Positions 29,002-42,811 of a DNA stretch of 42,811 nucleotides are shown here, in pieces; positions within the stretch are counted from its first letter, which is position 1, and every line of letters starts with the position of its first letter. The notes under the pieces are model-generated. The model saw only the letters and a program-made list of their open reading frames with translations. It did not search any database and had not been told where the DNA came from. Source of the DNA: a virus (taxonomy: Duplodnaviria; Heunggongvirae; Uroviricota; Caudoviricetes); the IMG/VR virus record IMGVR_UViG_3300013126_000013. One strand, written 5' to 3'. A program made the translations under genes and the position numbers.

Positions 29002-30344
29002 GATAACTTAATACCGCCTCGTGTTAATTTAAGCTGTTGCTTGAAAACATTGCCATCGAAGATAGAATTCACAGATTCAACTAGATACATACCATTTAAA
29101 CGTTCTTCTTCTTCAGTAGTTTTCTGATATGCGTGTTTGTATAGTGTAATGTTAATGTATGATCCGGCAAAAACATCGTTTCTTCCATACACTGTTATGT
29201 TCAAAGTATTCATGTTGTGATTATAGAAATGTGCTAGCTTTTTTGTGTATAGGTCTGAATAGTGAGTATCGGATCTAATTCCTTCGCCGCCTGGAACACC
29301 CGGCCCAGACCAATCTCGGAAGATATGGTATTCTTTTTCTCTCGACATATTCTCACGTATGAATAACTTATCATGAACTGGATTTAATTCAGGATCATGA
29401 TTTCCTTCTTCAGTATAATCGTAAGTCTTTGAATCAATATTCATGGTGAGCAAATTGAATTCATAAACGATTCGACGGTATCCACCTTGAGAAAGTGTAT
29501 CAATTGTATTCACTCGAGTACCGAAGTTAACATCGAGAATTTCAGTCATCGCAGAGTATTGCGAATCAGCACTAATAGATCCAGCGTAGTTGCGTTTGTA
29601 ATCAAGGACTGGTCGTTGAATACCACTTCGATCTTCTCCAGACTTTAAAGCTCTGCTTTGCATATACTCGTTCGTTGCAAAGAAGAAAGCATCTCGTGCT
29701 TCAAAAAAGCGAAATGTTTGAGAAGGAGTCATTCCGTTATTAAGAGGATTTTCGTCTGAATAAGCATTTCTCACAAACAGATTCATTGCTTCTTCTGTAC
29801 TATATTTTGGAACAACAATCGTTCTGCGGTTCGTAGTTTTTTCGGCAATTAGGAATTTGAGTTTCTTTCGAAATAACTTTTCAACTGGTCTTTGATAATA
29901 TTCATCAAACGCGTCAATTGCGTAGTCACTAATCAACTGTGTTCCAGCAATTGAATCTGTGTATGCTCTTTGAAGATATGAATTTTCTGATAGAAACTTG
30001 TATGGTGAAGTAAAGTTAAGAGTGTATTGCACAAAGCTTGGATTCTTTTCATCACCATAATTAACATTATCTACAGCGTATACGAAATAGTATTCGGTTC
30101 TTTCATTATCGAACCAATCTGCATATGTAACTCGAATAAATTCTTGCCCACGGATTGGGAACTCATTTAGAATATCATACGCTTCAAATATTGTTGCGCT
30201 GCCTCGAATAGCGCCGTTATTCATTGATTCAAGAATATTAAAGCTACCAACAAGACCAAGCATATTACGCTCAACATTAAGAGATTTGTTGAGTAGAGTA
30301 AACTCTCGTAATTCGTAATGTCCAGCTTGTTTGATATTAGCCAT
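28998..30344 (-). CDS. Baseplate hub protein, gp27-like (448 aa)
   Basis: Position between gp53 and gp5; FNILESM...RGSATI....ILNEFPIRGQE; terminal G.YLVESV...F. Confidence 0.6.
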   Translation of the reverse strand: MANIKQAGHYELREFTLLNKSLNVERNMLGLVGSFNILESMNNGAIRGSATIFEAYDILNEFPIRGQEFIRVTYADWFDNERTEYYFVYAVDNVNYGDEKNPSFVQYTLNFTSPYKFLSENSYLQRAYTDSIAGTQLISDYAIDAFDEYYQRPVEKLFRKKLKFLIAEKTTNRRTIVVPKYSTEEAMNLFVRNAYSDENPLNNGMTPSQTFRFFEARDAFFFATNEYMQSRALKSGEDRSGIQRPVLDYKRNYAGSISADSQYSAMTEILDVNFGTRVNTIDTLSQGGYRRIVYEFNLLTMNIDSKTYDYTEEGNHDPELNPVHDKLFIRENMSREKEYHIFRDWSGPGVPGGEGIRSDTHYSDLYTKKLAHFYNHNMNTLNITVYGRNDVFAGSYINITLYKHAYQKTTEEEERLNGMYLVESVNSIFDGNVFKQQLKLTRGGIKLS

Positions 30345-31137
30345 TCAACAAACTCTTCAAATCTTTTTCGACTCGTTGCGCATAGTCGGCATTAATAAGG
30401 AATATAGTTCTACGATCTTCATTCAGCTGTGTTTCGTATTCGTATACGCGAACTGGTGTCCAATCACCGACCGTTATATCTCCCAAACGATAGGTGTCAT
30501 ACGATATTTTAATAGTTGTATCAGTATTTTTTGTACAGTAGACTACGTTTGTATCTATCAATGTACTTGACAAAAACGTATCTACATTCAGTGACAATGT
30601 ATGAGTTACTGTACTGTTTGTGGTGGTTGTAATATTGATCGCTGTGCCATTTCTTGCGTTTGTTGCAGATGTTGCGAGCTTAATGATATTTGAGTTTACA
30701 CGAATAACATAATATGTGGTACCAGATGTGAGGCCGGCGATTGCTGGGCTTCCAGTATAAATGACTGGATCAGTTGTCTTAAACCCATGTGCAGTTGAAG
30801 TAATACGATTTGATGAGACATTTACTTTATTGCCGGCAAAAGAAATAGAATGTGCATACTTCTTGCGAATCGTCGATTCAAACTTTTCATTTGAGAGCGG
30901 CCATTGCGTGTATGGGTCGATAATGTTGTTTGCTAGATATATCATCCATACTTTGTTCACATCTCCATAATATAGGCGCGCGATATCTTCCGGACGGTCA
31001 TCACTTGTTACAGTGTAAGGTAAAAACAAATACGGATCTGCTTGAAGCTTTTCAGCAACCTTTACACGACGAGTAATATCAGTTACGGTCTCGCCGCCGT
31101 ACTCTATCTTTGGAAAGTAGCGAAAATACTTAGCCAT
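30337..31137 (-). CDS. gp53: Baseplate wedge gp53 with a ~90-aa beta-rich insertion
   Basis: YFRYFPKIEY, DDRPEDIA..YYGD...W.I.LANNIIDP..QWPL, YEYE..LNE.RR.I. Confidence 0.9.
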   Translation of the reverse strand: MAKYFRYFPKIEYGGETVTDITRRVKVAEKLQADPYLFLPYTVTSDDRPEDIARLYYGDVNKVWMIYLANNIIDPYTQWPLSNEKFESTIRKKYAHSISFAGNKVNVSSNRITSTAHGFKTTDPVIYTGSPAIAGLTSGTTYYVIRVNSNIIKLATSATNARNGTAINITTTTNSTVTHTLSLNVDTFLSSTLIDTNVVYCTKNTDTTIKISYDTYRLGDITVGDWTPVRVYEYETQLNEDRRTIFLINADYAQRVEKDLKSLLNG

Positions 31138-32021
31138 TATGCGTAATCCTCTTGAGTATGAATCTCAGATTCAATGATGGTAACAGCTAAGTTAACCATT
31201 GCAGGACGAGAACCAGTTGGACCCTTATTTACAACAACATGACCTTGAGGGGTATAGTCGACTGTTACGTTCGATATCATCGCCGTTTTGAACAATGGAA
31301 AGTAATTCTGATCAAGACCAACAAAGAATACATCGACCATATTTGGGTAGTTCAGTAGTGCTCGACTTAACACGTTTGATTGTGTACCTTCTACTCCGCC
31401 GTAAGATGGTAGTGAAGCAGATTTGAATCTTTTGACGATATCACGAATCTGTTCTGACTCGGTTTCATTGTTTGGAATTAATGTCCATTCAAATGTGTAT
31501 TGTTTCAGAGCGATACCGTTAAATACAAGAGCTTGGTGAGGGTTAACTGCGGTGCCGGTTCCTACTGATAAACCTTGTTCAATTTCAGAACCACCGATGG
31601 ATGTCAAGCCAGCTCGAGCAGCAAAGGTTGCAAATGATGCAAGCCCACTTGCACTTACATTACGAGGATCGAGTACGCTGCCACCAGTGAGCTTACTGAT
31701 CGCGTCAGTGGCTGCTCCAACTAATCCTTGATCTGAATTCATTGCTGCAGCAACATCGACAACAGCAGCTCCAGTAATTCCAAGTTCGCGACCCATTACG
31801 TCTGGGCTTGTTACATCTTGAATAGTCTTTGGCAATGGAAGAGCAATTGAGCCGTTCGACACTGTAGTCGTGCCACCAGCCGGTCTTGCGCTGTAGTTTT
31901 TAAAGTTAAAGATCATTGCATGAGAAGTAGCTTCCGAAGGATACCTCAGAAGAGATGAAGCTACATTTGATGTGCTTCTGTTTCTGTTAATAACATCTTG
32001 GGCTGGTCTGACGAATGCCAT
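31137..32021 (-). CDS. gp48: Baseplate tail-tube cap gp48
   Basis: LRYP, IALPLP, AVNPHQALVFNG...YTFEW.L.P..E.ES, L.YP, V.VDYTP.G. Confidence 0.88.
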   Translation of the reverse strand: MAFVRPAQDVINRNRSTSNVASSLLRYPSEATSHAMIFNFKNYSARPAGGTTTVSNGSIALPLPKTIQDVTSPDVMGRELGITGAAVVDVAAAMNSDQGLVGAATDAISKLTGGSVLDPRNVSASGLASFATFAARAGLTSIGGSEIEQGLSVGTGTAVNPHQALVFNGIALKQYTFEWTLIPNNETESEQIRDIVKRFKSASLPSYGGVEGTQSNVLSRALLNYPNMVDVFFVGLDQNYFPLFKTAMISNVTVDYTPQGHVVVNKGPTGSRPAMVNLAVTIIESEIHTQEDYA

Positions 32022-32030
32022 GAAGTATCC

Positions 32031-32038
32031 TATAAATA
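32031..32038 (+). promoter_or_regulatory. T4-type late promoter for gene 4
   Basis: Exact TATAAATA 33 nt upstream of the gp4 ATG. Confidence 0.8.
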
Positions 32039-32054
32039 CGTAGGTAGTTTAAGA

Positions 32055-32062
32055 TATTTATA
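32055..32062 (-). promoter_or_regulatory. T4-type late promoter for the gp48-to-baseplate/tail operon
   Basis: Exact TATAAATA on the minus strand 33 nt upstream of the gp48 ATG. Confidence 0.8.
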
Positions 32063-32071
32063 TGGACATTC

Positions 32072-32530
32072 ATGGCGTATTACCAGGGCAGATTCAAACC
32101 AAAGAATCCACAAAAATATAAAGGTGATCCGACTAATATCGTATACAGATCTGGTTGGGAACTCAAACTATTCAATTATCTCGATGAACATCCAAACGTA
32201 ATCAAATGGGGTAGCGAGGAATTAGTTATTCCCTACAAGAGTCCTATCGACGGCCGTTGGCATCGATACTTTCCAGACGTTTATGTAGAACAGATCGGTA
32301 TAGAAGGAAAAAAGCAAACTATATTGATTGAAGTAAAGCCAAAAAGTCAAACAGTTGCACCGAATCCAGATAATAAGTTAACCGCTAAAGGTAAACCTAC
32401 TAAACGTTACCTCACTGAGGTTATGACTTACGGGGTAAATCAGGCTAAATGGAAAGCAGCTCAAGAATTTTGTGCAGATCGAGGTTGGAACTTCTTAATC
32501 ATGACTGAAATAGAACTAGGTATTAAATAG
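32072..32530 (+). CDS. gp4: Head completion protein gp4 (TnsA-like nuclease fold)
   Basis: YQGRFKPKNPQKYKGDPTNIVYRSGWE...WGSEE..IPY.SP.DG..HRYFPD...IEVKP. Confidence 0.95.
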   Translation: MAYYQGRFKPKNPQKYKGDPTNIVYRSGWELKLFNYLDEHPNVIKWGSEELVIPYKSPIDGRWHRYFPDVYVEQIGIEGKKQTILIEVKPKSQTVAPNPDNKLTAKGKPTKRYLTEVMTYGVNQAKWKAAQEFCADRGWNFLIMTEIELGIK

Positions 32531-33115
32531 TTTGCAGTTATCGAAGTGCCATCTTTTCATTTGGTTAAGTTTACCAATTTTATTGCAATGTGGACAATTA
32601 ACGGTTGGCCTGGCTTTAGCGATACTTGAAAGAGATTCTTTATGAGATTCAGTAAAAATCATCCCTGTATGAGCATTTGACATATTTACTCTGTGTCTAT
32701 CGCTATATTTTCTTCCAATTTTTGCTTCAGACATCTTTTTTCTTTGGTAGTCAGATTTTTTAACGCCTCTAAATCTTTTTGATACTAGTGCTTTCTCTTC
32801 ACTTGACATTTGTCTTCCAAGTGTATTTGGTGGAGCTCTCCAGACCATATTGTAATATGTCTCATCTAAATCTGCGCGCACTCTTTTTAAAAAACGACTT
32901 TCTAATTTTTGAATATAGTTGTAATCTCTATGGTGTATAATTTTTACGCGTAAAAAGTCATTTGGCCTAGTGTTATATTCTCTTCTAAATACTGTGCCAC
33001 TTCCAATGTAAGAATAACCACGTGATCCGTTATGAATGCCGATATAACGCTTTTTTGTAAGTGTGTCTAGCCAAACATACAAATACGGTTTTGTAGCTAT
33101 GCTATAAATAGTCAT
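32516..33115 (-). CDS. Free-standing GIY-YIG (Seg-like) homing endonuclease with NUMOD3-type repeats
   Basis: YLY..KRYIGIH..YIGSG, later E; S....KMSEAK.G helices; C-terminal CPHC..G....RWHFDNCK. Confidence 0.85.
   Translation of the reverse strand: MTIYSIATKPYLYVWLDTLTKKRYIGIHNGSRGYSYIGSGTVFRREYNTRPNDFLRVKIIHHRDYNYIQKLESRFLKRVRADLDETYYNMVWRAPPNTLGRQMSSEEKALVSKRFRGVKKSDYQRKKMSEAKIGRKYSDRHRVNMSNAHTGMIFTESHKESLSSIAKARPTVNCPHCNKIGKLNQMKRWHFDNCKLFNT
33103..33110 (+). promoter_or_regulatory. Candidate late promoter for gene 2, embedded in the first codons of the antisense endonuclease gene
   Basis: Exact TATAAATA ~92 nt upstream of the gp2 ATG. Confidence 0.6.
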
Positions 33116-33187
33116 GCTGGAACTCCTAAGTTTCTAGAGTAGGTGGGGATTCTTCCCGGTCTCCCGTGACCTACATCAATATTTATA
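33116..33187 (-). promoter_or_regulatory. Late promoter plus structured leader of homing endonuclease 1
   Basis: TATAAATA-5nt-GTAGGT CAC GGGA(12 nt)TCCC C ACCTAC-TCTAGAAAC-TT-AGGAGTTCCAGC-ATG. Confidence 0.8.
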
Positions 33188-33201
33188 ATTTAAGGGTTCT
33201 T

Positions 33202-33792
33202 ATGGCGATTCTATTTGATACAGTCTTAACAAAAGGTATTCGAGCCGGCCAAATGCCAGCACGAACCGAGGCTGCGCGTCAGTGGTATCGTGATACAGCT
33301 CAAAGCTATAAGCGTATTGATGAACGTCAGCTAATGAAGGGCGATGCTGAGAGGCTCACAATGAAGCCTCTTGTTGGACAGATGTACATGTATTACTACG
33401 ACCCGAAGCATAAAGCAACTCTTCCTTATTATGATAGATTCCCATTAGTGTTTCCGTATCGTAAAGTGCCAGGCGGATTCATGGGTCTGAACCTACACTA
33501 TCTTCCGTATGTATATCGCGCTAAGCTTATGGATGCTCTATACGACGTGGCAAACAACGACAAGTTTGATGAAACGACGAAGCTTAAGTTGAACTACAAT
33601 ATCCTAAACGGATCTTCTAAGTTCAAGTATTTTGCTCCATGTGTGAAACACTACTTAACCGATCACTTACGTAGTCGGTTTCTCTATGTATATCCATCAG
33701 AATGGGATATCGCGTTGTTTCTTCCTACGGAAAGATTCCAAGGCGCAACAAAACAAAAAGTCTGGCAAGACTCAAAGAAACTCATAGTGTAA
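33202..33792 (+). CDS. gp2: DNA end protector protein gp2
   Basis: G.MYMYYYDPKHK.TLPYYDRFPLVFP...GFMGLNLHYLP..R; start placed at ATG 33202. Confidence 0.93.
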   Translation: MAILFDTVLTKGIRAGQMPARTEAARQWYRDTAQSYKRIDERQLMKGDAERLTMKPLVGQMYMYYYDPKHKATLPYYDRFPLVFPYRKVPGGFMGLNLHYLPYVYRAKLMDALYDVANNDKFDETTKLKLNYNILNGSSKFKYFAPCVKHYLTDHLRSRFLYVYPSEWDIALFLPTERFQGATKQKVWQDSKKLIV

Positions 33793-33802
33793 GGTCACCT
33801 CG

Positions 33803-34555
33803 ATGGTATTCAACATCAACGATTTTAAAGCGCATGTCAGTAACAGAGGGTTAGCAAAAAACAATCTGTTCTATTGTGCTATTACCATCCCGACTACTTT
33901 GAGTAATACGGTGGGCTCTACAATTACGTCAAATGAACTTACATTCTTCTGTAAGTCAGCTCAGATTCCATCGTTCGACTTAACTACTGTTTCATTCCGT
34001 CAGCACGGCTACGGCAGAGAATATAAGCGCCCAATGGACTTCAATACTTCTTCTCTACCACTCATCTTCATGGTCGATGCAGAGTTTGGAGTTATGAAGT
34101 ACTTCCACAAGTGGATGCAATCGATCTTCAACTTTAACACTGGCGCGGTTGCAGCTGAAGATGTATATCGTAAATTGCCAAATGAATTTGAATATCGTGA
34201 TAACTATGCAGCGCGAATTGAATTATATGTCTTTTCAGCAAACGACGTACAAAAGGTTTACAAATACACATTCGATAAAGCATATCCGGTTTCAATCGGC
34301 ACTGTTGATATGTCGTGGGAAAATCAAAGTGATGTGATGTCTCTACCAGTTAATTTCGAGTATGATTCACTTACTCTTGAAACTGTTGAGTATGCTTCAA
34401 TTGCGCCGGATCTTGATCGTCAAAACGGATTGATTTCGTATATTAGCGCGATTAATGGATTCGGCCAAGCAATTCAGCAGATCGACCGCCCACGCAATAT
34501 TCAAGACCTCATTCTTACTTACACAAACATCAACACCATTTTCGGTGCATTATAA
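33803..34555 (+). CDS. gp54: Baseplate tail-tube initiator gp54 (tail-tube fold)
   Basis: GLAKNNLF, LTFFC.SAQIP, YF.KW...IF, F..AYP.SIG..D.SW. Confidence 0.8.
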   Translation: MVFNINDFKAHVSNRGLAKNNLFYCAITIPTTLSNTVGSTITSNELTFFCKSAQIPSFDLTTVSFRQHGYGREYKRPMDFNTSSLPLIFMVDAEFGVMKYFHKWMQSIFNFNTGAVAAEDVYRKLPNEFEYRDNYAARIELYVFSANDVQKVYKYTFDKAYPVSIGTVDMSWENQSDVMSLPVNFEYDSLTLETVEYASIAPDLDRQNGLISYISAINGFGQAIQQIDRPRNIQDLILTYTNINTIFGAL

Positions 34556-34567
34556 TGGAGTTATACT

Positions 34568-35266
34568 ATGGGTTTACCCAAGATTGATTTACCACTTTTT
34601 GAACTTGAAGTTCCATCAACTGGAAAGAAAGTCAAATATCGCCCGTTCACAGTAAAAGAAGAAAAGATTCTACTTATTGCACAAGAGTCAAAAGATCCTA
34701 AACAGATCTTCCTCGCGATTAAACAAATCTTAACAAACTGCTTACAAAGTACTGACGTTGAAAAATTAGCTATATTCGATTTAGAGTATATCTTACTGAA
34801 TATTCGAGCTAAGTCGGTGAACAACGAGATTTCATTTAGTATTAAAGATCCAGATACTGAAGAAAAAGTAGATCTTACTATTAACATCGACAACATCCAG
34901 ATCGTTAAGTTTCCAGATCATAATAAAATCATTAAAGTAAACGATGATATTATGATTGAAATGCGTTACCCATCTATTTCGTATTTAGAGAGCCTCAAAG
35001 ATGGTCAAAGCGAGAGCGATTCATTAAACAGTATTATGAAGGAATGTATAAATTCTATTTCCGATGGTGACCAGTCATATAAATTGGCCGATTTCAGTGA
35101 AGCAGAAGTCGAAGACTTTATTGAATCTCTTAGCTCCGTTATTGTCGCACAAATCAAAAAATTCTTCGACACAATTCCCGTCATGAAATACGAAACAACT
35201 TACACTGATAAAACTGGAAAAACCAAAACGTTTGTTGCTCAAGGTGTAGAAACTTTTTTTACCTAA
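34568..35266 (+). CDS. gp26: Baseplate hub assembly protein gp26 (tail assembly chaperone-like)
   Basis: LPKID.P.FELEVPSTGKKVKYRPFTVKEEKILLIAQES; FDLEY..L.IRAKSV; ends QGVETFFT. Confidence 0.93.
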   Translation: MGLPKIDLPLFELEVPSTGKKVKYRPFTVKEEKILLIAQESKDPKQIFLAIKQILTNCLQSTDVEKLAIFDLEYILLNIRAKSVNNEISFSIKDPDTEEKVDLTINIDNIQIVKFPDHNKIIKVNDDIMIEMRYPSISYLESLKDGQSESDSLNSIMKECINSISDGDQSYKLADFSEAEVEDFIESLSSVIVAQIKKFFDTIPVMKYETTYTDKTGKTKTFVAQGVETFFT

Positions 35267-35268
35267 CG

Positions 35269-35427
35269 TTGAGCCATACCAATCTACAAATCTACTATCA
35301 AGTAGTGTTTGGATTGGCTCAACACCATAAATACCAAATAAGTGAAATTGAAAACTTAATACCATTTGAACGAGACATTTACTATGATATGCTAATTCGC
35401 TTCATCGAATCTAAAAAGGAAAGCTAA
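35269..35427 (+). CDS. gp51: Baseplate hub assembly catalyst gp51 (52 aa, TTG start or -1 frameshift extension of gp26); not in the ORF track
   Basis: LSHTNLQIYYQVVFGLAQHHKYQISEIENLIPFERDIYYDML matches the gp51 pattern QHHKY...IEN..P.ERDIY; TAATG-coupled to the next gene. Confidence 0.85.
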   Translation: MSHTNLQIYYQVVFGLAQHHKYQISEIENLIPFERDIYYDMLIRFIESKKES

Positions 35428-37124
35428 TGGTCGCCGAGAATACTGTATCAGACTTAATCGAACGCATTAAGCTTGAAGGCCAGCTTACGCGTAACACCGG
35501 AACAAATTCAATCAAAGCTTTGATTGAAGTCTCTCGTGATGTTCGTGATAGAATGGATGCTCAATTAGATCTTATCAGCACTAACAATTCTACTATAACA
35601 GACTTCCTACAGGACGCTACTCGATCAAGACAATACGGCGGCGGCCCACAGGCAGATGAAGGTGATGGTGGCGATGATTCTGGTGACGGTGGAGGTGGAG
35701 GTGATTCAGGCGGAGATGGTCGGCCATTAATGAAGTTAGGATTGTTTTCAACTCTCGCTGCTGCAGCCATCGGTGGAACAATTGGTGTATTCAAAGGATG
35801 GATCGACGCGATTAAATTTTTCACTCCAGCAAAAATTCTTGACGCGTTACAGAGTGTGAGCTCATCAATTACGAAAGCACTAACTGGCTTTGCTGATATG
35901 GGTAAGAATGTAATTACCTCAGCAAAAACTGCGGTGTTTGGCGCGCTCAGCCCACTTAATCAGTTCAAAGATTTCTTTTTAAAATTGGCTGCTCCGTTTA
36001 CTCAAGCCGCAAAGACTATTGCAACCCTAGCGAACAGCGTTTTTGGTGTGACTACAAAGGTGACTGATATGTTCGCGTATTTTAAATCGTTTGGCTCCAC
36101 GATATCTAAAATAAGCGGTGTCGTTGGAAAACTGTTCTTACCACTAACGATTGTTATGACAGCCATTGATACTGTTAAAGGCATTATTGCTGGATATACA
36201 GAAGGTGGAATCGTCGGAGCTCTTGAAGGTGCGATCACCGGATTCTTTAACTCTCTTATCTTTGGCCCGCTTGATCTATTAAAAGACCTAGCTTCTTGGG
36301 CATTAAGTAAGCTTGGATTCGAGAACGCAGCAGAAACTCTAGACTCATTTAGTTTTAGCGAATTGTTCTCACGGTTCGTCAGTGGTATATTCGATCTAGG
36401 CAGTGGAATTATAAGTTCACTTGTTGGATCGTTTGATAACATTTATTCCGAATTTGCTTCCGGCGATATCATGGGTGGTATCGGGACATATTTCACCGAA
36501 GCGTTCACTACTCTCGTGACAAAGCCTCTTGACTTAGTAAAAGACTTGGTGTCATGGGCTGCAGATTTATTTGGATTCGAGAATGCTTCAGATTGGCTCG
36601 ACAGCTTTAGTATTACTGAGTTATTCTATTCTGTTGTTGACTGGATTTCTGCAATTCCTGGTAAGCTTGTTGACGCATTCGAAGATTTTTGGATCAACAC
36701 GATGGAAAATTTCAAGATAGGCTTCATTAACTTTTCAAACTGGGTAGCATCGATTCCAGATAGAATCTACTTAAGCGCTTTAGAGTATCTAAACAATACT
36801 GATATTGGAGACTATCTTGTTAGTGATGATGCTGTTGCAAGAGCTCGAGCAGCTGTTCAGTCAAGACAAAACGACGGTGCAAATAGAATAGCACAAGTTC
36901 AGCTTGAAGCAAGAGATCAACGTGCGCAATTAGCGGCTCAGCGTGTACAAGAGGATGCGGCTCGTGCTGGCATACCTTCAGCCGTAGCTGCTCCAGCGAT
37001 AGTAGATAATAGAACGACTGTTGGACCAACCAATAACGTAACAAATACTACGATCGTTACTACGACAAATGCTGCGAGTGCTCTCTCTTCATATAACCAG
37101 TTCCAATTGAACGGTGTTCAATAA
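35427..37124 (+). CDS. Tape-measure/baseplate hub (gp29-like) protein (565 aa)
   Basis: Follows gp26 and gp51; amphipathic helices with W/F periodicity; PLDL.KDL.SW..GFENA...LDSFS repeat 86 aa apart. Confidence 0.7.
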   Translation: MVAENTVSDLIERIKLEGQLTRNTGTNSIKALIEVSRDVRDRMDAQLDLISTNNSTITDFLQDATRSRQYGGGPQADEGDGGDDSGDGGGGGDSGGDGRPLMKLGLFSTLAAAAIGGTIGVFKGWIDAIKFFTPAKILDALQSVSSSITKALTGFADMGKNVITSAKTAVFGALSPLNQFKDFFLKLAAPFTQAAKTIATLANSVFGVTTKVTDMFAYFKSFGSTISKISGVVGKLFLPLTIVMTAIDTVKGIIAGYTEGGIVGALEGAITGFFNSLIFGPLDLLKDLASWALSKLGFENAAETLDSFSFSELFSRFVSGIFDLGSGIISSLVGSFDNIYSEFASGDIMGGIGTYFTEAFTTLVTKPLDLVKDLVSWAADLFGFENASDWLDSFSITELFYSVVDWISAIPGKLVDAFEDFWINTMENFKIGFINFSNWVASIPDRIYLSALEYLNNTDIGDYLVSDDAVARARAAVQSRQNDGANRIAQVQLEARDQRAQLAAQRVQEDAARAGIPSAVAAPAIVDNRTTVGPTNNVTNTTIVTTTNAASALSSYNQFQLNGVQ

Positions 37125-37160
37125 AATAGCTGATATAGACCCCATATTATCCTCTTATGA

Positions 37161-37184
37161 AGAAGGAGCCCGAAGGCTCCTTCT
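37161..37184. terminator. Intrinsic terminator between the convergent tape-measure gene and gene 32
   Basis: AGAAGGAGCC-CGAA-GGCTCCTTCT, a 10-bp stem with a cUUCGg loop on the minus strand. Confidence 0.85.
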
Positions 37185-37191
37185 GTTAGAC

Positions 37192-38136
37192 TCAGTCTCC
37201 AGCCGCTAGGCTTTTGAAAAAGTCAAGAGTGTCGTCATCTTCATCGAGAGAAGGATTAAACGACGGAGATGGAGCTTCCTCCTGCTTAGGGGCTGCGCGT
37301 TCTTTGAACTTCGGAGTGAAGTCCATCTCCTTATCATCGTCCTCGGCGGCGGATTTCATGGGTGCGTGTGCACCGCCATCAAGACCCAGAACCTTATAGA
37401 GTTTCGTCTTCAGTTCTGCATAAGACTTGAAGTTTTTAGGATCGACGATCTCTTTCAGAGAATGCTGTTGCTTCCAGACCTCTTCAAGTTGTTCATCGGT
37501 AAATGACTCGCCACGAGAGTTTGTCATAGGACCGGCTTCACTGAACTCAGAGCGATCATAGTTGCGATAGCCTTCGTAGTTACGAATCTTCAGTTTGAAG
37601 TCGGCACCCTCCCACATGTCGAACGGATTGACCGGAGTCTCGCCTTCATACTGTGGGTTCATTGCTTCCTGAAGCTTCTCCATGATTTTCTTGCCAAACT
37701 TGAAAAGGAATACTTTGCCCTCATTTGAGGGATTAGCAGCATCCTTCACAACATAGATGTTGGCATGAAAGTTAGTGCGACGCTTTTGCTTGCGTGCGAT
37801 TTCTTTATCGGCTTCGTTACCAGAATTCCAGAGTTTAGAATTGTGTTCAGAGACCGGATCATCTTGACCAATCGTGGTCAACGAGTTCTCAATATACCAA
37901 CCACCAGGACCTTGGAATCCATGGTCATGCATCTTAACAAACGGAACATCCTCACCTTCTGGGGCAGGCAGGAAGCGAATAACAGCGTATCCATTCCCGG
38001 CCTTATCGACTTCGGGCTTCCAGTATTTGTCATCGTTGTTGTTTGATTGGCCGCCGACCGTCTTTTGAAGCTGCTGGTTCAGTTTGTCGAACGAAGACGA
38101 ACGGGCTTTTTTGAGAGCTGCGAATGAGCTAGACAT
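37192..38136 (-). CDS. gp32: Single-stranded DNA-binding protein gp32
   Basis: WKPEVDKAGNGYAVIRFLPAP...HGFQGPGGWYIENSLTTIG..DPV; FDMWEGADFKLKIR; acidic tail DFFKSLA. Confidence 0.97.
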   Translation of the reverse strand: MSSSFAALKKARSSSFDKLNQQLQKTVGGQSNNNDDKYWKPEVDKAGNGYAVIRFLPAPEGEDVPFVKMHDHGFQGPGGWYIENSLTTIGQDDPVSEHNSKLWNSGNEADKEIARKQKRRTNFHANIYVVKDAANPSNEGKVFLFKFGKKIMEKLQEAMNPQYEGETPVNPFDMWEGADFKLKIRNYEGYRNYDRSEFSEAGPMTNSRGESFTDEQLEEVWKQQHSLKEIVDPKNFKSYAELKTKLYKVLGLDGGAHAPMKSAAEDDDKEMDFTPKFKERAAPKQEEAPSPSFNPSLDEDDDTLDFFKSLAAGD

Positions 38137-38147
38137 GATAGTATCCT

Positions 38148-38187
38148 TTGCGATTGTAAGCGATTTTAAGCGGCTTGTTGCGATTTT
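38148..38187 (-). repeat. Four 10-nt tandem units directly upstream of the gene 32 SD; candidate translational operator
   Basis: AAAATCGCAA CAAGCCGCTT AAAATCGCTT ACAATCGCAA followed by AGGATACTATC-ATG. Confidence 0.6.
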
Positions 38188-38279
38188 GAGAATTTGTCGA
38201 CAAGTATTATTTTCATCTTCTTATCGTAGTTGATGAATGGCCTTACCTTGCCAACAAATCTATTTATACTCGGAGTCAT
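38166..38279 (-). pseudogene. Relic second copy of the gene 59 3' end
   Basis: MTPSINRFVGKVRPFINYDKK-MKIILVDKFS aligns with gp59 FPQIKRTVEKVRPFVSYDKKKMKQFLLERFA. Confidence 0.75.
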
Positions 38280-38415
38280 TACGTTTTAGCTCTTTGTACA
38301 AATTTATTTGCTGAGAACGTTGAAGGTGTTCAGCGTATTCTATTACCTTATGCATAGGTATGAGTCCATAAGAAACTGCTTGATGAGCTTTTTCTAAACA
38401 TTCATTTCAAGTCAT
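38260..38415 (-). pseudogene. Small ORF interrupted by TGA at codon 3
   Basis: ATG ACT TGA AAT GAA TGT... is open for 48 further codons (NECLEKAHQAVSYGLIPMHKVIEYAEHLQ...EYK); SD weak. Confidence 0.35.
38261..38268 (-). promoter_or_regulatory. Late promoter upstream of gene 32
   Basis: Exact TATAAATA on the minus strand ~125 nt upstream of the gp32 ATG. Confidence 0.7.
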
Positions 38416-38429
38416 GTGATCTAACCAAG

Positions 38430-38504
38430 TATAAATAGAAATGTAGTTCGCGGAATATGTGAGAGTCTTCCCAACTACTCTAGAAACAACAGGAGTTCCA
38501 GCAT
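38430..38504 (+). promoter_or_regulatory. Late promoter plus structured leader of homing endonuclease 2
   Basis: TATAAATA-5nt-GTAGTT CGC GGAA(12 nt)TTCC C AACTAC-TCTAGAAAC-AAC-AGGAGTTCCAGC-AT-ATG. Confidence 0.8.
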
Positions 38505-39170
38505 ATGACTATTTATCATACACCTTTCACCTATCTCATTGGTTGGAAAAATCACGATCTTTGGTACTATGGTGTTAGATACGCCAAAGGATGCAAACCA
38601 GAAGATCTGTGGTTAACCTATTTTACCTCATCGGCTAAGGTATGTCAACTACGAAATGAATTAGGCGAACCTGATGTTGTTGAGGTAAGAAGGGTTTTTA
38701 CCAATGCAAAGGCTGCAAAGATGTGGGAAGAAAGGGTCCTTCGCCGTTTAGACGTTCTTAATACAACGAGATGGTTAAACGCGAATATTGGTGGCACATT
38801 TAATCCGCTGCGTGGAAAAGACCATCCATCGTATGGGACTAAATGGAGTGATGAATTCAGAGCTAAAGTGATGTTAACTAGGGCGTCTAACAACTATTCA
38901 CACGGCGAATCAACCAGACTTAAGATTTCAGAGTCGTGTAGGGGTTATAACCATTCGCCTGAGGCGATTCAAAAGATCAAAACAGCTAGAAAAACCCAAG
39001 AACCTACTTTCGTCGGTAAAACACATTCAGAAGAAGCTAAGAAACGTATGTCTGCCACTAGATTAGCTAATCAGAAGATTGTTATGTGTCCACATTGCGC
39101 TAAAACTGGTGCACACAATATCATGGCGAGATGGCATTTCGACAAGTGCAAATCACGCAAACCTCTCTAG
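38505..39170 (+). CDS. Free-standing GIY-YIG-like homing endonuclease with NUMOD3-type repeats
   Basis: FTYLIGW..WYYGVRY...YFTSS...WE.RVL; HSEEAKKRMS; C-terminal CPHC..G....RWHFDKCK. Confidence 0.82.
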   Translation: MTIYHTPFTYLIGWKNHDLWYYGVRYAKGCKPEDLWLTYFTSSAKVCQLRNELGEPDVVEVRRVFTNAKAAKMWEERVLRRLDVLNTTRWLNANIGGTFNPLRGKDHPSYGTKWSDEFRAKVMLTRASNNYSHGESTRLKISESCRGYNHSPEAIQKIKTARKTQEPTFVGKTHSEEAKKRMSATRLANQKIVMCPHCAKTGAHNIMARWHFDKCKSRKPL

Positions 39171-39743
39171 TAGAAACTGCTTCATCTTTTTCTTGTCGTA
39201 AGAAACGAACGGTCTAACCTTTTCGACCGTTCGTTTGATTTGTGGAAAGATGATGGGATCAGCAATTTTCTTCTCCCAGTAAGAAAAATTATTCACAAGG
39301 TCGTCGATGATAACAAGAGTCTCCAAGTTAATTCGACGCATATTATAGAGCTGGAGAAGTCTTGGATGCTGACCATCCTTCACAAGTATGTTTGAGTTGA
39401 AGTCGTCATTCAACTCCGAGAGGTCGTTCTTGAACACGTATGACAAGCTTTCTTGTTTACGTGCCCATTCAATGCAGACCTCTTCTGCCTTCTCATTATC
39501 AAGAAGGTCTCCGACCCAAAGTGTTGGATCAAAGATCATATTAGCAAGAATGAATTCTTTTGCATCCTTGCGTTTCGAGAGTTTGTAAAATTGAAATTTG
39601 TCTTTACGATTCTCGAAAGAAAGTTGAGAGGCCTTCACCTTACCATTGTACTTAAAGTAATCATAATCAGTGGTGAAGTGCCTCTTCAGCGCGAGATAAT
39701 ACATGTAAATCTCAAAAGCATCTCGCGTTGAATATACAGACAT
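39153..39743 (-). CDS. gp59: Helicase loader gp59
   Basis: Y..YLALKRHFT.DYDYFKYNGKVKAS..SFE.RKDKFQF.KL; ISLETL-like INLETLVI; located beside gene 33. Confidence 0.92.
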   Translation of the reverse strand: MSVYSTRDAFEIYMYYLALKRHFTTDYDYFKYNGKVKASQLSFENRKDKFQFYKLSKRKDAKEFILANMIFDPTLWVGDLLDNEKAEEVCIEWARKQESLSYVFKNDLSELNDDFNSNILVKDGQHPRLLQLYNMRRINLETLVIIDDLVNNFSYWEKKIADPIIFPQIKRTVEKVRPFVSYDKKKMKQFLLERFA

Positions 39744-39967
39744 TAGATCGGTAACCTCTGTGTTCTTTCTACTAAATTAAGTTTTTCGGCGTCTTCATGT
39801 ACTCGAGCTTTGATAATCTGGCTCCGGCGTACAATGTCACCAATTACTTCGATTTCAATTCCGTGAACTTCAGCATAATGAACAAGTGCATCGATGTATG
39901 TAACATCGTCGTTCACGTATTTGCTGACTTCACGGAGAATGCTTTCCGCTGTCAGTTCTATTTGCAT
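39743..39967 (-). CDS. gp33: Late promoter transcription co-activator gp33
   Basis: TYIDALVHYAE..GIEIE.IG.I.....IKA....DAEKLN; start placed at the TAATG overlap at 39967. Confidence 0.88.
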   Translation of the reverse strand: MQIELTAESILREVSKYVNDDVTYIDALVHYAEVHGIEIEVIGDIVRRSQIIKARVHEDAEKLNLVERTQRLPI

Positions 39968-40173
39968 TATCCGTGTAGCACTTTCGTGTTGATCGCCCAA
40001 TTTTCAGCAGCGTCTTCGACGTAATGAATAGACTTTCCTGGAAAAGTCTCGGTGTAAAATTTATTACCACCGGCATCATAGTAATCAATATAGTAATAAG
40101 CGCCGGCTTCGTTCCGCATCACTTCGGCTCGAGCTGCATGGGCATTTTCTTTGAAAAAAGTTGAAATAAGCAT
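39967..40173 (-). CDS. Small hypothetical protein (68 aa)
   Basis: SD GGAGA; SIHYVEDAAENW motif as in other T4-like small ORFs; coupled to gp33. Confidence 0.7.
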   Translation of the reverse strand: MLISTFFKENAHAARAEVMRNEAGAYYYIDYYDAGGNKFYTETFPGKSIHYVEDAAENWAINTKVLHG

Positions 40174-40181
40174 GTGTTCTC

Positions 40182-40817
40182 CTATTTTACCGTAAAGCCC
40201 AATCGATAAACTGGGAGATAACCGTTTGAGTTGTCGGGGGCTTCTATATAAGTATATCCCATTTTCATGTAAATGTCAACCATTTGTTGTTCATCACTCC
40301 AGATTGGGATAAGTTCATCATAGTCTGGATCTGGAGTATCGCGAAAATGGAGCTCGATCACTTTGTCGTCGATCATTTCAATGTTGACTATTTCGACGTC
40401 AGAGAACATAAGTTCATCTTCAATGCGAAATGGCATTTGAAAATTTTCACTACAGCGAGTCCACCGTTTAAATCTAAAGAGAAGATTCACATCTCGTTCG
40501 GCTTTGTAGCAAGTCTTTTGCTCATATCCGTATAAGGAATCTGCCTCATACGTAATAGAGTATTGTTCACCATCGAACCATTCACACCAGAAATATCCAG
40601 GTTCTACACCAGTGCGATCACCAGCTTCGATCCATTGCTTTCTAGCCCCTACACTCATACCGTCAAGGTTGTATATAGGTCTTACACAGTAGTATCCAGA
40701 TACCTCTGGAGGGACACCTCCAGGCCCACAGCGATATCCCATATATTCAGCAAGGTGAAGTTTATTAAACCACGTTCTGAGATACGGATATTTTTGCCAA
40801 GCCTGGAAGTCTTCCAT
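40182..40817 (-). CDS. Hypothetical protein with ATP-grasp-like motifs (211 aa)
   Basis: VRPIYNLDGMSVGA and FWCEWFDGEQYSITY resemble the ATP-grasp KP..G.G and E.I.G.E.SV motifs; ends IELHFR..PD. Confidence 0.55.
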   Translation of the reverse strand: MEDFQAWQKYPYLRTWFNKLHLAEYMGYRCGPGGVPPEVSGYYCVRPIYNLDGMSVGARKQWIEAGDRTGVEPGYFWCEWFDGEQYSITYEADSLYGYEQKTCYKAERDVNLLFRFKRWTRCSENFQMPFRIEDELMFSDVEIVNIEMIDDKVIELHFRDTPDPDYDELIPIWSDEQQMVDIYMKMGYTYIEAPDNSNGYLPVYRLGFTVK

Positions 40818-40844
40818 CGATTACCTCAAAAGAGTTTCAAGTAT

Positions 40845-41810
40845 TTATTTGATACTCGAAACCATTTCTTGAGTTGCTGCAAGTTCTGGGTCAGGAACAA
40901 GACCGTACTGAGCAAGAGCGCCTTCAGGGCCGGCCATATCATCACTTACAAAGAATTCAACATATTCTTTAAGACCCGGAATAACACTGAGATGTGCATT
41001 CTTTACATAGAAGTAAAGTGGACGGCTGATAGGATAATCACCACTTGCAATCGTCTCCACGCTCGGGAATACACCGCTTACAGTAGTGACTTCTAGTTTA
41101 TTCGTGTTGTTCTGATAGAAGCTAAGACCAAATACACCAAGTGCCGTTTTATTTGCATCGAGGCGAGCAAGGGTTTCAGTGTAGTCACCATCGATATCAA
41201 CTGACGCGCCGTCTGTACGAACCTTAACACATGACTTCTTTTGATCATCATCTAGCTTCTCAACACCGAGTGCTTGCTTACATCCTTCTTCCATAACCTT
41301 CACATCAAACACTTCACGCGTGCCGTGCTTTGTTCCTGGAATATAAGCAATGATCTCTACTGCTGGTAGAGTAGAATCCACATCGCTCCAAAGCATTGCG
41401 GTGCTATCAGCATGCAATGCGGTATAGAGTTGAAGAACTGTTAGATCCTTAATGCCCAATTGGCCGATGTTCGACGCAAACACGATACCGTCGTAGCCAA
41501 TGCGAACCTCAGTCACTTCACCGATTACTTCTTCGCATTTAGCCCACTCTTCGTCTTTCATTTTTGATGAACTGTTTGCAATGTCAACAGTGTTTTCGCC
41601 AACTCCTTCACAGAGTTTCTTACGACCAGCGCCGGATCCACCGCCCTCTACGACTGGCGAAGGAAATTCAAAGTTTTCACCGAATGCTTCTGCTACAATT
41701 GTTGCATAAGGAAGAACTGTAGATGATCCAGTTACTTGTACGTTATCTCTTGCATATGCGGTAGATGCTACTACTAAAGCTAATGTAGTACTAATTAAAA
41801 ATGTCTTCAT
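40845..41810 (-). CDS. pstS: Phosphate ABC transporter substrate-binding protein PstS (auxiliary metabolic gene)
   Basis: Signal peptide; GSSTVLPYA, GGGSGAG, DIANSSS, RIGYDGIV, GTREVF, YPISRPLYFYVK. Confidence 0.93.
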   Translation of the reverse strand: MKTFLISTTLALVVASTAYARDNVQVTGSSTVLPYATIVAEAFGENFEFPSPVVEGGGSGAGRKKLCEGVGENTVDIANSSSKMKDEEWAKCEEVIGEVTEVRIGYDGIVFASNIGQLGIKDLTVLQLYTALHADSTAMLWSDVDSTLPAVEIIAYIPGTKHGTREVFDVKVMEEGCKQALGVEKLDDDQKKSCVKVRTDGASVDIDGDYTETLARLDANKTALGVFGLSFYQNNTNKLEVTTVSGVFPSVETIASGDYPISRPLYFYVKNAHLSVIPGLKEYVEFFVSDDMAGPEGALAQYGLVPDPELAATQEMVSSIK

Positions 41811-41858
41811 TCAATTTCTCCACGTCGAGAGGCTTGCGGATTGCTTCCTCACATGATA

Positions 41859-41892
41859 AATTTATACCATGAATGTAACAATTGGATTACAG
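41859..41892 (-). promoter_or_regulatory. Pho box plus -10 element upstream of pstS
   Basis: CTGTAAT-CCAA-TTGTTAC (41892-41875), 10-nt spacer, TAAATT (41864-41859). Confidence 0.7.
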
Positions 41893-41909
41893 CTATATTA
41901 TTGTTTTGT

Positions 41910-41936
41910 AAAAAGTGGAGCTAACCATGGCTCCAC
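41910..41936 (-). terminator. Intrinsic terminator downstream of the OMP-like gene
   Basis: GTGGAGC-CATGGTTA-GCTCCAC followed by TTTTT. Confidence 0.85.
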
Positions 41937-41973
41937 ACGGGTCTATTACGTGACCACCCGATACGAATGTAAC

Positions 41974-42363
41974 TTAGAAGCTAAGCGATACACCAACAAT
42001 GCTGTCAACGTACTCGAAGCTGCTATCGAAGTTATTCTTGATGTAGGCTTCAACGCTTGCTGTGCCAAGGTTAACATTTGGCACATAGGTTGCGCCGAGC
42101 ACAGCCCCTTCAAAGGTGGTGCTATCAAACTTGATGAAATGATCACCATTGTAGATAGCGATATCGGTCTCTGCCCAAACTGCGAGGCCTTCAATAGGTG
42201 CATAACCAAGACGCGGAGTCAAGATAGAAGTAACAACTGAAGTGTCAGTGTTGTACTCGGTGACGAGGTCGGTATTCAAAGCAAGACCATTACCAAAGTC
42301 AAGAGCTGATGCTGCAGAAGTCATAGCAACAAGAGCGGCAGTAGCCATCAAAAATTTCATCAT
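41974..42363 (-). CDS. Small secreted outer-membrane beta-barrel-like protein (129 aa)
   Basis: Signal peptide ending ASA; alternating hydrophobic strands; C-terminal GVSLSF; SD AAGGAG. Confidence 0.65.
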   Translation of the reverse strand: MMKFLMATAALVAMTSAASALDFGNGLALNTDLVTEYNTDTSVVTSILTPRLGYAPIEGLAVWAETDIAIYNGDHFIKFDSTTFEGAVLGATYVPNVNLGTASVEAYIKNNFDSSFEYVDSIVGVSLSF

Positions 42364-42374
42364 TTGTATTCTCC

Positions 42375-42635
42375 TTAGGATTTGTTTGTGGTGGAGTTAT
42401 TAACAAAAGCGTATAATGCTGAAGAGCGAGTCACCACGTCGTTCTCACTGTACGCTTTCGGTTGGTTTTCGTCGATGAATTTATTTATCGCATCGACGTT
42501 ATTGTTTGACGTTCGAAGTGCGTCAAGCTTAGCAAAAAACACATTCTGTTTCATTTGCGTCTCACGGTCAAGCATCTCTTGCGCCATCTTCATGATATCA
42601 AGACGAACTTCGTATGGTGTCTTACTTCCCTGCAT
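42375..42635 (-). CDS. Conserved T4-like hypothetical protein (KTPYEVRLDIMKMAQEML...AFV)
   Basis: Motif (S)KTPYE.RL...KMA..ML seen in T4-like small ORFs; start placed at ATG 42635. Confidence 0.65.
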   Translation of the reverse strand: MQGSKTPYEVRLDIMKMAQEMLDRETQMKQNVFFAKLDALRTSNNNVDAINKFIDENQPKAYSENDVVTRSSALYAFVNNSTTNKS

Positions 42636-42810
42636 CTGTGTCACCCACAGCAGCTTTACGCTCAGCGTCGTTGAATGCAGATACGGTGTAAGAATCCATA
42701 GTGGCCATACCAGAAGCATAGTCACCTTTCATACGAGAAGTCATTGCAGAAGCTGAACGGAAGGTTTCAGCAGCGTTAGCAGTAGAGAACTGCATTGTGT
42801 TGTTATGGTT
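42622..42810 (-). CDS. 3' end of an unidentified Ala/Ser/Thr-rich ORF entering from the right edge
   Basis: Open frame NHNNTMQFSTANAAETFRSASAMTSRMKGDYASG...DTDAGK-stop with biased codons (GCT, AAC, TTC). Confidence 0.55.
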   Translation of the reverse strand, partial: NHNNTMQFSTANAAETFRSASAMTSRMKGDYASGMATMDSYTVSAFNDAERKAAVGDTDAGK

Positions 42811-42811
42811 A

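Follow-up and report, generated by a model that had tools for sequence, protein, structure and literature searches.

In one 42,811-nt stretch of phage DNA (IMG/VR record IMGVR_UViG_3300013126_000013; "the window" is this whole stretch), two homing endonuclease genes, HEG1 and HEG2, are preceded by the same short structured sequence, and the locus raises the question of what this sequence does and on which of its strands. The best nucleotide matches of the window are short stretches, at 68-73% identity, in Sinorhizobium phiM12-like phages and in cyanomyoviruses; judged from its sequence, the source is a T4-like phage far from any cultured relative. The genes around the two copies are as follows.

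31137-32021, minus strand: gp48
32072-32530, plus strand: gp4, head completion (gene 4)
32516-33115, minus strand: HEG1, a 199-aa seg-like homing endonuclease (phrog_314; weak NUMOD3)
33201 (ATG) to 33792, plus strand: gp2, DNA-end protector (gene 2)
37192-38136, minus strand: gp32
38505-39170, plus strand: HEG2, a 221-aa seg-like homing endonuclease (phrog_314; NUMOD3)
39153-39743, minus strand: gp59

Tail and baseplate genes lie between gp2 and gp32. HEG1 is antisense to its flanking genes 4 and 2, and HEG2 is antisense to its flanking genes 32 and 59. Both products match phrog_314, "homing endonuclease" (E values of 9e-21 for HEG1 and 3.4e-19 for HEG2); HEG2 also matches NUMOD3 (6.8e-14), and the NUMOD3 match of HEG1 falls under the cut-off. 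Neither has a match to Pfam GIY-YIG, although Y-rich N-terminal motifs are discernible in both. The named proteins nearest to them, at 33-39% identity, are found in Acidovorax phage ACP17 and Stenotrophomonas phage Ps15; these seg-like HEGs have no promoter and overlap the upstream gene. An intein domain was found in none of the nine flanking ORFs scanned, which gives no support to a link with split inteins (cf. Dassa et al. 2009).

The initial annotation had described the two copies as sharing one geometry, with stems that differ by compensatory changes. Every element that it listed was found in its place and in the same geometry in both copies, and the two compensatory stem swaps between them are real. 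Common to both are TATAAATA, a 5-nt spacer, a covarying bipartite hairpin (SL1), an SD block, and ATGACTATTTAT. A 13-nt block and a 14-nt block occur exactly twice each within the window, and a covariance model (R1) run on the window returned only the two known sites, at 69.2 and 68.4 bits. The elements of copy 1 are these.

33187-33180, minus strand: sense late-promoter box TATAAATA for HEG1; here the plus strand reads TATTTATA, the U-rich tail after SL1'
between TATAAATA and SL1, minus strand: spacer TTGAT
33139..33174, either strand: hairpin SL1/SL1', with the predicted sense +1 at the G at 33174
33174-33169 with 33144-33139, minus strand: outer 6 bp of SL1, GTAGGT/ACCTAC
interior of SL1, minus strand: CAC opposite C, inner helix GGGA/TCCC, and 12-nt loop at 33161-33150
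33138-33130, minus strand: TCTAGAAAC
33127-33116, minus strand: AGGAGTTCCAGC
33115-33113, minus strand: ATG of HEG1, followed by ACTATTTAT
33117..33137, plus strand: hairpin SL2', antisense CUGGAA/UUUCUAG, with the anti-SD CUCCU at its top
33103..33110, plus strand: inverted late-promoter box TATAAATA in HEG1 codons 2-4, the candidate outward promoter P_as
33111-33115, plus strand: P_as spacer GTCAT, with the predicted +1 at the G at 33116
33116..33187, plus strand: core of the predicted antisense transcript (SL2', SL1', U-rich tail)

Those of copy 2 are as follows.

38430..38437, plus strand: sense late-promoter box TATAAATA for HEG2
between TATAAATA and SL1, plus strand: spacer GAAAT
38443..38478, either strand: hairpin SL1/SL1', with GTAGTT/AACTAC, CGC opposite C, GGAA/TTCC, and a 12-nt loop at 38456-38467
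38479-38487, plus strand: TCTAGAAAC
38491-38502, plus strand: AGGAGTTCCAGC, with the HEG2 ATG at 38505
38480..38501, minus strand: hairpin SL2', with the anti-SD in its loop
38510..38517, minus strand: inverted box GATAAATA in HEG2 codons 2-4, candidate P_as
~38504-38502, minus strand: predicted antisense start

On the HEG mRNA, the SL2 bases of copy 1 make only a weak CUAGAA/UUCCAG helix with one A·C mismatch and with the SD, AGGAG, in the loop. The predicted antisense transcript of copy 1 is complementary to the 5' UTR of HEG1, to its SD, and to the first base of the AUG, and, when read onward, enters the SD and the ATG (33201) of gene 2. The initial annotation had overlooked three features: the second hairpin, the asymmetry between the strands, and, in codons 2-4, the inverted late-promoter box.

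Further homologues with covariation, for which the initial annotation had called, are plentiful and go far beyond these two copies. Three pattern scans of IMG/VR yielded 184 loci, and an nhmmer profile yielded 154 distinct elements in uncultured T4-like phage contigs. In five contigs of 195 to 361 kb, R1 found 13, 4, 4, 8, and 3 full-length copies. On the nuclease strand, the consensus reads NATAAATA, ~5 nt (AAAGT-like), SL1, UCUA, SL2 (whose loop contains the SD), CAGC, a stretch of ~5 nt that includes the ATG, and finally TATTTAT. The outer helix of SL1 is 6 bp long, its bulges are a conserved C(G/A)C opposite C, and its inner helix has 3 to 4 bp; variants of the outer helix include GTAGTT/AACTAC, GTAGAT/ATCTAC, GTCAGT/ACTGAC, GTCTGT/ACAGAC, GTCCAT/ATGGAC, and GTGGTT/AACCAC, among others. 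The arms of SL2 covary as well (AUGCU/AGCAU, AUACU/AGUAU, ACAUU/AAUGU, UGAUU/AAUCA), and those of the window copies are of a minority type, CUAGAA/UUCCAG. The 123 complete ORFs downstream of the module (150 to 336 aa) include NUMOD3 (44 ORFs), HNH_3 (14), GIY-YIG (10), HNH (8), DUF7487 (5), TnsA-like (3), SegE (3), and I-TevI DNA-binding domain (3) matches. The element is thus an ~85-bp portable module at the 5' end of free-standing homing endonuclease cassettes in uncultured T4-like phages, not a leader proper to one gene, and the proposal of a portable, conserved, covarying cis element that accompanies homing endonuclease genes is borne out by copies across the family. An operator recognized by each endonuclease, which had been offered as an alternative, is unlikely because the module precedes unrelated nuclease families.

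Nor did we find support for the idea that the variable loop of SL1 is a specificity element. The loop spans 4 to 14 nt across the family and is mostly 4 to 7 nt long in the relatives, where it falls into few classes. No good match to the loop of copy 1 occurs in the rest of the window. That of copy 2 has one exact 12-mer match, at 4084-4095, with unmatched flanks; a match of this kind has a chance of ~1% and is probably a coincidence.

Outside uncultured phages, the module was seldom found. Neither positions 30000-42811 of the window nor five loci with consensus-type copies had a match in Rfam 15 at E values of ≤1, BLAST of consensus-type modules against GenBank phages gave no true match, and R1 had no match in the genomes of S-PM2, ACP17, or Ps15. 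The sole copy found in a GenBank phage is at 85994-86071 of PV558790.1, the record of Variovorax phage V45v66 (marked UNVERIFIED; host Variovorax sp. SCN45); it is diverged and has a displaced inner box. Among bacterial genomes there were 8 pattern matches; 5 were true modules, all in metagenome-assembled genomes, four on contigs of <3 kb and one on a 43-kb contig. The leader of phage T7 gene 10 resembles copy 1 in having GGGAGACC...CCC followed by UCUAGAAA; we dismiss this likeness as coincidental, both strings being minority variants within the module family.

Folding of single sequences does not set the window copies apart from shuffled sequences (sense z = +0.3; antisense z = -0.95 and -0.26; not significant), and the evidence for structure therefore rests on covariation in the relatives. 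When 54 diverse copies were aligned with MAFFT, 94.1% of cells proved to be paired and 13 pairs showed double changes, in 129 cells; none of 500 shuffles reached the observed level, and slid controls were 35 to 49% paired. The second hairpin, SL2, around the SD, likewise covaries. The alternative pairing of ACTCT with GGAGT, which the initial annotation had proposed as a mask for the SD, is not the predicted minimum-energy fold, and it is unsupported because its bases are invariant.

The fold clearly prefers one strand. With RNAalifold, both hairpins formed on the antisense strand (-18.2), whereas only SL1 formed on the sense strand (-10.9). Over 120 copies, the mean minimum free energy of SL2 was -6.2 kcal/mol antisense versus -2.5 kcal/mol sense, and the fold was more stable antisense in 119 of the 120 (p ~3e-21). 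This advantage is due to wobble pairing: among the 54 aligned copies, 86 cells are G·U on the antisense strand versus 10 on the sense strand (79 versus 3 for the SL2 part), and one antisense G·U pair is near-invariant (52 of 54 copies) and reads as an A·C mismatch on the mRNA. The bias in G·U pairs and the stability of the antisense fold point to selection on an antisense RNA; selection on that DNA strand itself is less likely. By these sequence comparisons, the product of the module is most likely not a structured mRNA leader but an antisense RNA, made from a second late promoter.

A structured leader was the reading carried over from I-TevI and mobE in the initial annotation. In this model SL1, at the 5' end of the late nuclease transcript, would stabilize the mRNA or control its translation, as in I-TevI, mobE, and segB. 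SL1 does start at the predicted sense +1, 5 nt past TATAAATA; its Watson-Crick pairs allow it to form on both strands, and it is retained in the sense consensus. Moreover, T-even phages offer precedents, since I-TevI, I-TevII, I-TevIII, segB, and Aeh1 mobE are subject to translational control by a late promoter and hairpin (PMC2988022). The module resembles these systems in that the HEG ORF is immediately preceded by a TATAAATA box and an RNA hairpin, which would restrict it to late expression, and it resembles the seg43(25) hairpin of Aeromonas phage 25 (PMC2988022), which also lies upstream of the RBS and leaves it uncovered. Hairpins of a similar kind were interpreted as mobE-like mRNA structures by Dassa et al. 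(2009; PMC2677866), who found them in the 5' UTRs of 15 of 16 endonuclease genes, with TATAAATA present in 10, and who described two conserved motifs that pair on the stem; these hairpins precede unrelated types of endonuclease, GIY-YIG and Vsr-like, in "fractured genes" and come from ocean and freshwater-lake metagenomes. All four features described there (a hairpin directly before the HEG start, TATAAATA, two complementary motifs, and unrelated HEG types) are present in the module, and one module locus (L132) is a split terminase gene. Likened by description only, the hairpins of Dassa et al. probably belong to the same family as the module or to a related one. The accessible text of that article describes no covariance model, second hairpin, strand analysis, or inner promoter box.

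Several observations nevertheless make a leader of the nuclease mRNA decidedly unlikely. In the T-even systems the promoter lies inside the hairpin and the RBS is sequestered on the mRNA, whereas in the module the promoter lies outside the hairpin (in almost every family member, all of SL1 lies 3 to 5 nt downstream of NATAAATA) and the SD is exposed. We found no mRNA hairpin that sequesters the SD or AUG, the sense consensus being without SL2, and no late promoter within a 5' arm; only pairing of AUAAAUA with UAUUUAU would fit the latter, and it is without covariation. SL2 covaries strongly and yet is near-unfolded on the sense strand, where it has conserved A·C mismatches and the SD in its loop, which is hence unsequestered. 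The exceptions in SL1 point the same way: over 122 copies, its ten pairs show 12 A·C and zero G·U on the sense strand. Thus, the module differs from the T-even leaders in that its fold was selected on the opposite strand and in that one conserved sequence family stands in front of many genes. Finally, a leader would offer no explanation for the conservation of TATTTAT across three frames.

The motif that directly follows the ATG, TATTTA(T), corresponds on the other strand to the late-promoter box ATAAATA, and NATAAATA is the late-promoter motif of cyanomyoviruses (PMC2984593). The inner box, ATAAATA, is perfect in 94 of 122 copies and departs by no more than a single base in 120. Depending on the copy, it falls in any of the three frames (MxIY in 85 copies, MYL in ~10, MIFI in ~10), it is kept also in unrelated HNH proteins (e.g., M-C-I-Y-C), and its distance to CAGC is 5 nt in 83 of 99 copies. 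To judge from this pattern, the inner box behaves like a nucleotide-level signal, independent of frame and with fixed spacing. Both boxes, outer and inner, are followed by 4 nt, a T, and then a G, and in 38 generic late-promoter candidates of these phages, base 6 or 7 downstream is a purine. T4-type late transcription begins ~6 bases downstream of the box. By this rule, the predicted sense start is the first base of SL1 (33174; 38443), and the predicted antisense start is the base of SL2' (33116; ~38504). No sigma-70-like sites overlap the module.

Any perfect inverted repeat of a promoter box necessarily presents a second box on the opposite strand, and the sequence by itself therefore cannot tell whether it serves as a promoter or as a pairing partner. 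The two boxes might instead form a switch for read-through transcripts: in RNAs that cross the module, AUAAAUA would pair with UAUUUAU and so close a three-way junction, either burying the AUG region or flagging a site for processing, and transcripts that start inside the module would be without one arm, following the logic of I-TevI. The boxes are indeed perfect 7-nt complements with symmetric ~5-nt spacers, one locus (L028) has ATATATA on both sides, a compensated change, and some box variants retain G·U pairing on the antisense strand. The box helix shows no real covariation, however; three of its pairs are invariant, an eighth pair is unpaired in 42 of 53 copies, ATATATA is uncompensated in two copies, and a mere seven A-U pairs would have to close a large junction. 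We regard such a switch as very improbable.

What an outward promoter would drive can be examined at copy 1, where the cassette is delimited by a natural HEG-less allele. Contigs assembled from three freshwater RNA runs, which give neither strand nor transcript ends, share small parts of the window, represent HEG-less relatives, and lie outside both HEGs and the module, on whose expression they do not bear. Among such freshwater metatranscriptome contigs, those of two studies join 32510 to 33201 via 20 other letters, which provide an alternative gp4 end and stop, with the gp2 ATG directly after. The joint thus defines cassette 1.

32511..33200, either strand: cassette 1

It contains the recoded last 20 nt of gene 4 (the last six gp4 codons), HEG1, the module, and 13 nt, TTTAAGGGTTCTT, which lie at its end and give gene 2 a new SD. 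Genes 4 and 2 are directly adjacent in the HEG-less allele and 670 nt apart in the window. The only late box between gene 4 and gene 2 in the window, upstream of gene 2, is the inner box; hence, the predicted outward transcript must reach gp2, and termination at SL1' must be incomplete in copy 1. Among 105 scorable copies, the upstream neighbor is divergent from the nuclease in 73, often only 15 to 70 nt away, and co-oriented in 32; both flanks are antisense to the nuclease in 41 copies and sense in 16. A host start codon lies <30 nt past the tail in at least ~20 copies, which rules out efficient termination in those copies. The tail itself opens with AC ahead of the U run. A simple terminator scan did not flag SL1', its rules (a loop of ≤8 nt and a contiguous stem) being unfit for a bulged stem.

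These arrangements could mean that the module serves only to relieve polarity, the inner box being an outward late promoter and the fold a protective leader for the adjacent host gene, with the nuclease unaffected. Cassette 1, which parts gene 2 from gene 4 and supplies a new SD, and the frequent, close divergent neighbors fit this idea, and host promoters within T4 seg and mob genes are known (PMC2988022). The inner box, however, is best kept where there is no host gene for it to drive: it is perfect in 29 of 32 copies whose upstream gene is co-oriented with the nuclease versus 52 of 73 divergent ones, which argues for a role intrinsic to the nuclease. In addition, a leader for the host gene needs no anti-SD loop facing the SD of the nuclease. 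A function confined to the host gene therefore appears unlikely.

The module might also act as DNA, as a single-stranded hairpin or a homology patch that aids recombination or the swapping of nuclease cassettes. It is common to unrelated nuclease ORFs and present in many copies per genome, and G·T is the best-tolerated mismatch in DNA hairpins. On the other hand, a homology patch predicts neither compensatory changes in two helices, nor strand bias, nor exact promoter geometry, and we know of no nuclease or recombinase that requires such a hairpin. The precedent for an element of this kind is PeSL of T4-type phages (PMC2839356, PMC4122927): short, conserved, multicopy cassettes of a promoter and a stem-loop beside variable genes, which may mediate modular exchange. 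PeSLs differ from the module in having early, sigma-70-type promoters, a terminator stem-loop, and no tie to endonucleases, whereas the module has late boxes on both sides; the text of the 2014 PeSL paper (PMC4122927) contains neither "late promoter" nor TATAAATA. We give a DNA-level role very little credence.

We therefore favor, by a modest margin over even odds, a module of two face-to-face late promoters in which the outward one makes an RNA that brakes the nuclease. The module is bounded by two (N)ATAAATA boxes that face each other ~75 bp apart. The outer box would drive the nuclease mRNA, and the inner one, in nuclease codons 2-4, points outward and may fire in that direction. The outward transcript would begin at the G of GCUG and run through SL2', with the anti-SD in its loop, one base, SL1', and a tail like ACUUUUAUUUAU. 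This U-rich tail, the reverse complement of the outer promoter, would be the probable end of the RNA, and the predicted product resembles a small RNA with an intrinsic terminator, albeit with an imperfect tail. Such an RNA would be complementary throughout to the stretch of nuclease mRNA that runs from the 5' end past the SD to the AUG and could act as a cis-antisense brake on translation, by analogy with RNA-OUT of IS10; interference between the convergent promoters may add to the brake. Being complementary, the 7-nt loops that hold the SD and the anti-SD could form a kissing interaction. The A·C mismatches would suit both RNAs, leaving the ribosome site of the mRNA open while permitting a stable antisense RNA. 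Where the cassette lies antisense within a host operon, as at copy 1, the outward transcript would read on and supply the downstream gene 2.

The closest parallels are RNA-OUT and RNA-IN of IS10/Tn10 and art200 of IS200 (PMC5006887, PMC4513863), in which a stable stem-loop antisense RNA of ~70 nt is complementary to the SD/AUG region. As in IS10, the gene at issue encodes a DNA-cutting enzyme of a mobile element, and a promoter (in the module, a candidate promoter) lies inside its 5' end, points outward, and faces the gene's own. The antisense strand of the module likewise carries stable, conserved stem-loops, here two hairpins with covariation and a G·U bias. Complementarity to the SD and start codon follows from the geometry and covers 33116-33174 and 38443-38504, from the predicted sense +1 to the AUG. 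The module differs from IS10 in that it heads a homing endonuclease gene in a lytic phage rather than a transposase gene, in its T4-type late boxes, two hairpins, and full-length overlap, and in that its predicted outward transcript probably also serves a host gene. A second parallel is CfrI of cyanophage S-PM2, an RNA of ~225 nt that links psbA to an endonuclease gene (Millard et al. 2010, as described in PMC2984593). According to the same source, CfrI was detected by experiment in this T4-like phage and runs antisense to a homing endonuclease gene; as R1 has no match in S-PM2, it is a different RNA.

The several copies per genome make action in trans conceivable, as in IS10. The copies of a genome share SD-covering blocks (13 plus 14 identical nt in the window pair), and for this reason one can imagine that the outward RNAs of all copies act on every module-bearing nuclease mRNA, as a phage-wide antisense network, but we hold this to be doubtful. 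Homogeneity of SL2 arms within a genome is ruled out as a general rule by three loci (L106, L154, and L161), each with two differing arm types; cross-talk in trans is thus not required family-wide.

So far, the tolerance of phages for many selfish nucleases has been explained only for individual T4 cases (I-TevI, mobE). The module, a single sequence family of >150 natural variants, stands before unrelated nuclease genes in uncultured T4-like phages from water and soil. To our knowledge, antisense RNA control of homing endonucleases is undescribed apart from CfrI in S-PM2. Rfam lacks the module, which is rich in natural covariation and comes with exact predictions of transcript ends; the diverged copy in the GenBank record of a phage with a named host, Variovorax phage V45v66, makes the model directly testable. 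A cassette of this kind can mend the operon that it interrupts, since it brings a candidate promoter and an SD for the host gene. If the network in trans were real, inhibition by multiple copies would cap the total HEG load, with up to 13 such genes per genome, and the module would be an adapter that lets the phage tolerate unrelated nucleases.

The homing endonuclease gene of copy 1, HEG1 (32516-33115, minus strand), lies between gene 4 and gene 2, and contigs from RNA runs of two studies contain a natural allele lacking it, in which 32510 is joined to 33201 via 20 other nucleotides. Comparison with this allele defined the edges of the inserted DNA (cassette 1, 32511-33200):

Edge segments of cassette 1, defined from the HEG-less allele
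32511-32530: edge segment at the gene 4 side
33188-33200: edge segment at the gene 2 side

Because the HEG-less allele joins 32510 to 33201, cassette 1 recodes the final six codons at the gene 4 end, and it also brings along a new Shine-Dalgarno sequence for gene 2. The recoded end of gene 4 overlaps the HEG1 stop codon in a convergent arrangement. The same junction holds module-bearing endonucleases in other phages (L160 3455-4611 and L169 5737-6924), where the orientation is opposite to that in the window, i.e., co-oriented with gene 4; insertions seem to recur at the gene 4/gene 2 junction. Between gp48 and gp4, we also observed a pair of back-to-back TATAAATA boxes, at 32031 (plus strand) and 32062 (minus strand), which look like divergent late promoters.

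In freshwater metatranscriptomes, contig depth was far greater over gene 32, which adjoins copy 2, than elsewhere (up to ~630; 37421-38274). One RNA contig ends at 38274, adjoining TATAAATA at 38268 (minus strand), a box within the relic of the end of gene 59. Although this contig is from a 97%-identical relative, its end is consistent with gp32 being driven by its own late promoter rather than by the copy-2 inner box. The copy-2 SL1 loop, TATGTGAGAGTC, recurs as an exact 12-mer at 4084-4095 (plus strand). This second site lies in the radical-SAM cluster, where it precedes the start of the minus-strand ORF 2966-4078 by 6 to 17 nt. Its flanking sequences are unlike those of the loop, and given a chance of ~1%, the match is probably a coincidence.

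Module-bearing endonucleases were also found next to tmRNA matches and a terminase ORF. On L198, a 328-kb phage contig (G002), the endonuclease gene (944-1597, minus strand) is flanked by two Rfam tmRNA matches spanning 641-2019:

tmRNA matches on L198
641-959: permuted or beta tmRNA (Rfam match)
1893-2019: alpha-tmRNA-like piece (Rfam match)

This endonuclease may lie inside or beside a two-piece phage tmRNA gene. On L132 (3685-5349), the 310-aa ORF upstream of the endonuclease is the N-terminal part of a large terminase (Terminase_6N) and looks like a split gp17, resembling the 17A/17B arrangement of Aeromonas phages.

Full-length modules (75 to 90 bits) also occurred in metagenome-assembled genomes of bacteria, on five contigs (L211, L213, L214, L215, and L217; bins: Haliscomenobacter, Mucilaginibacter, Bacteroidetes, and Terrimicrobiaceae); these contigs are probably of phage origin and were binned together with bacterial DNA. 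One phage with a named host has a module that is diverged (51 bits), Variovorax phage V45v66 (L209; PV558790.1 85994-86071, a GenBank record without annotation and marked UNVERIFIED). There the module heads a 226-aa GIY-YIG gene, and a divergent 495-aa ORF begins ~11 nt past its promoter box. V45v66 could offer an experimental system for the module.
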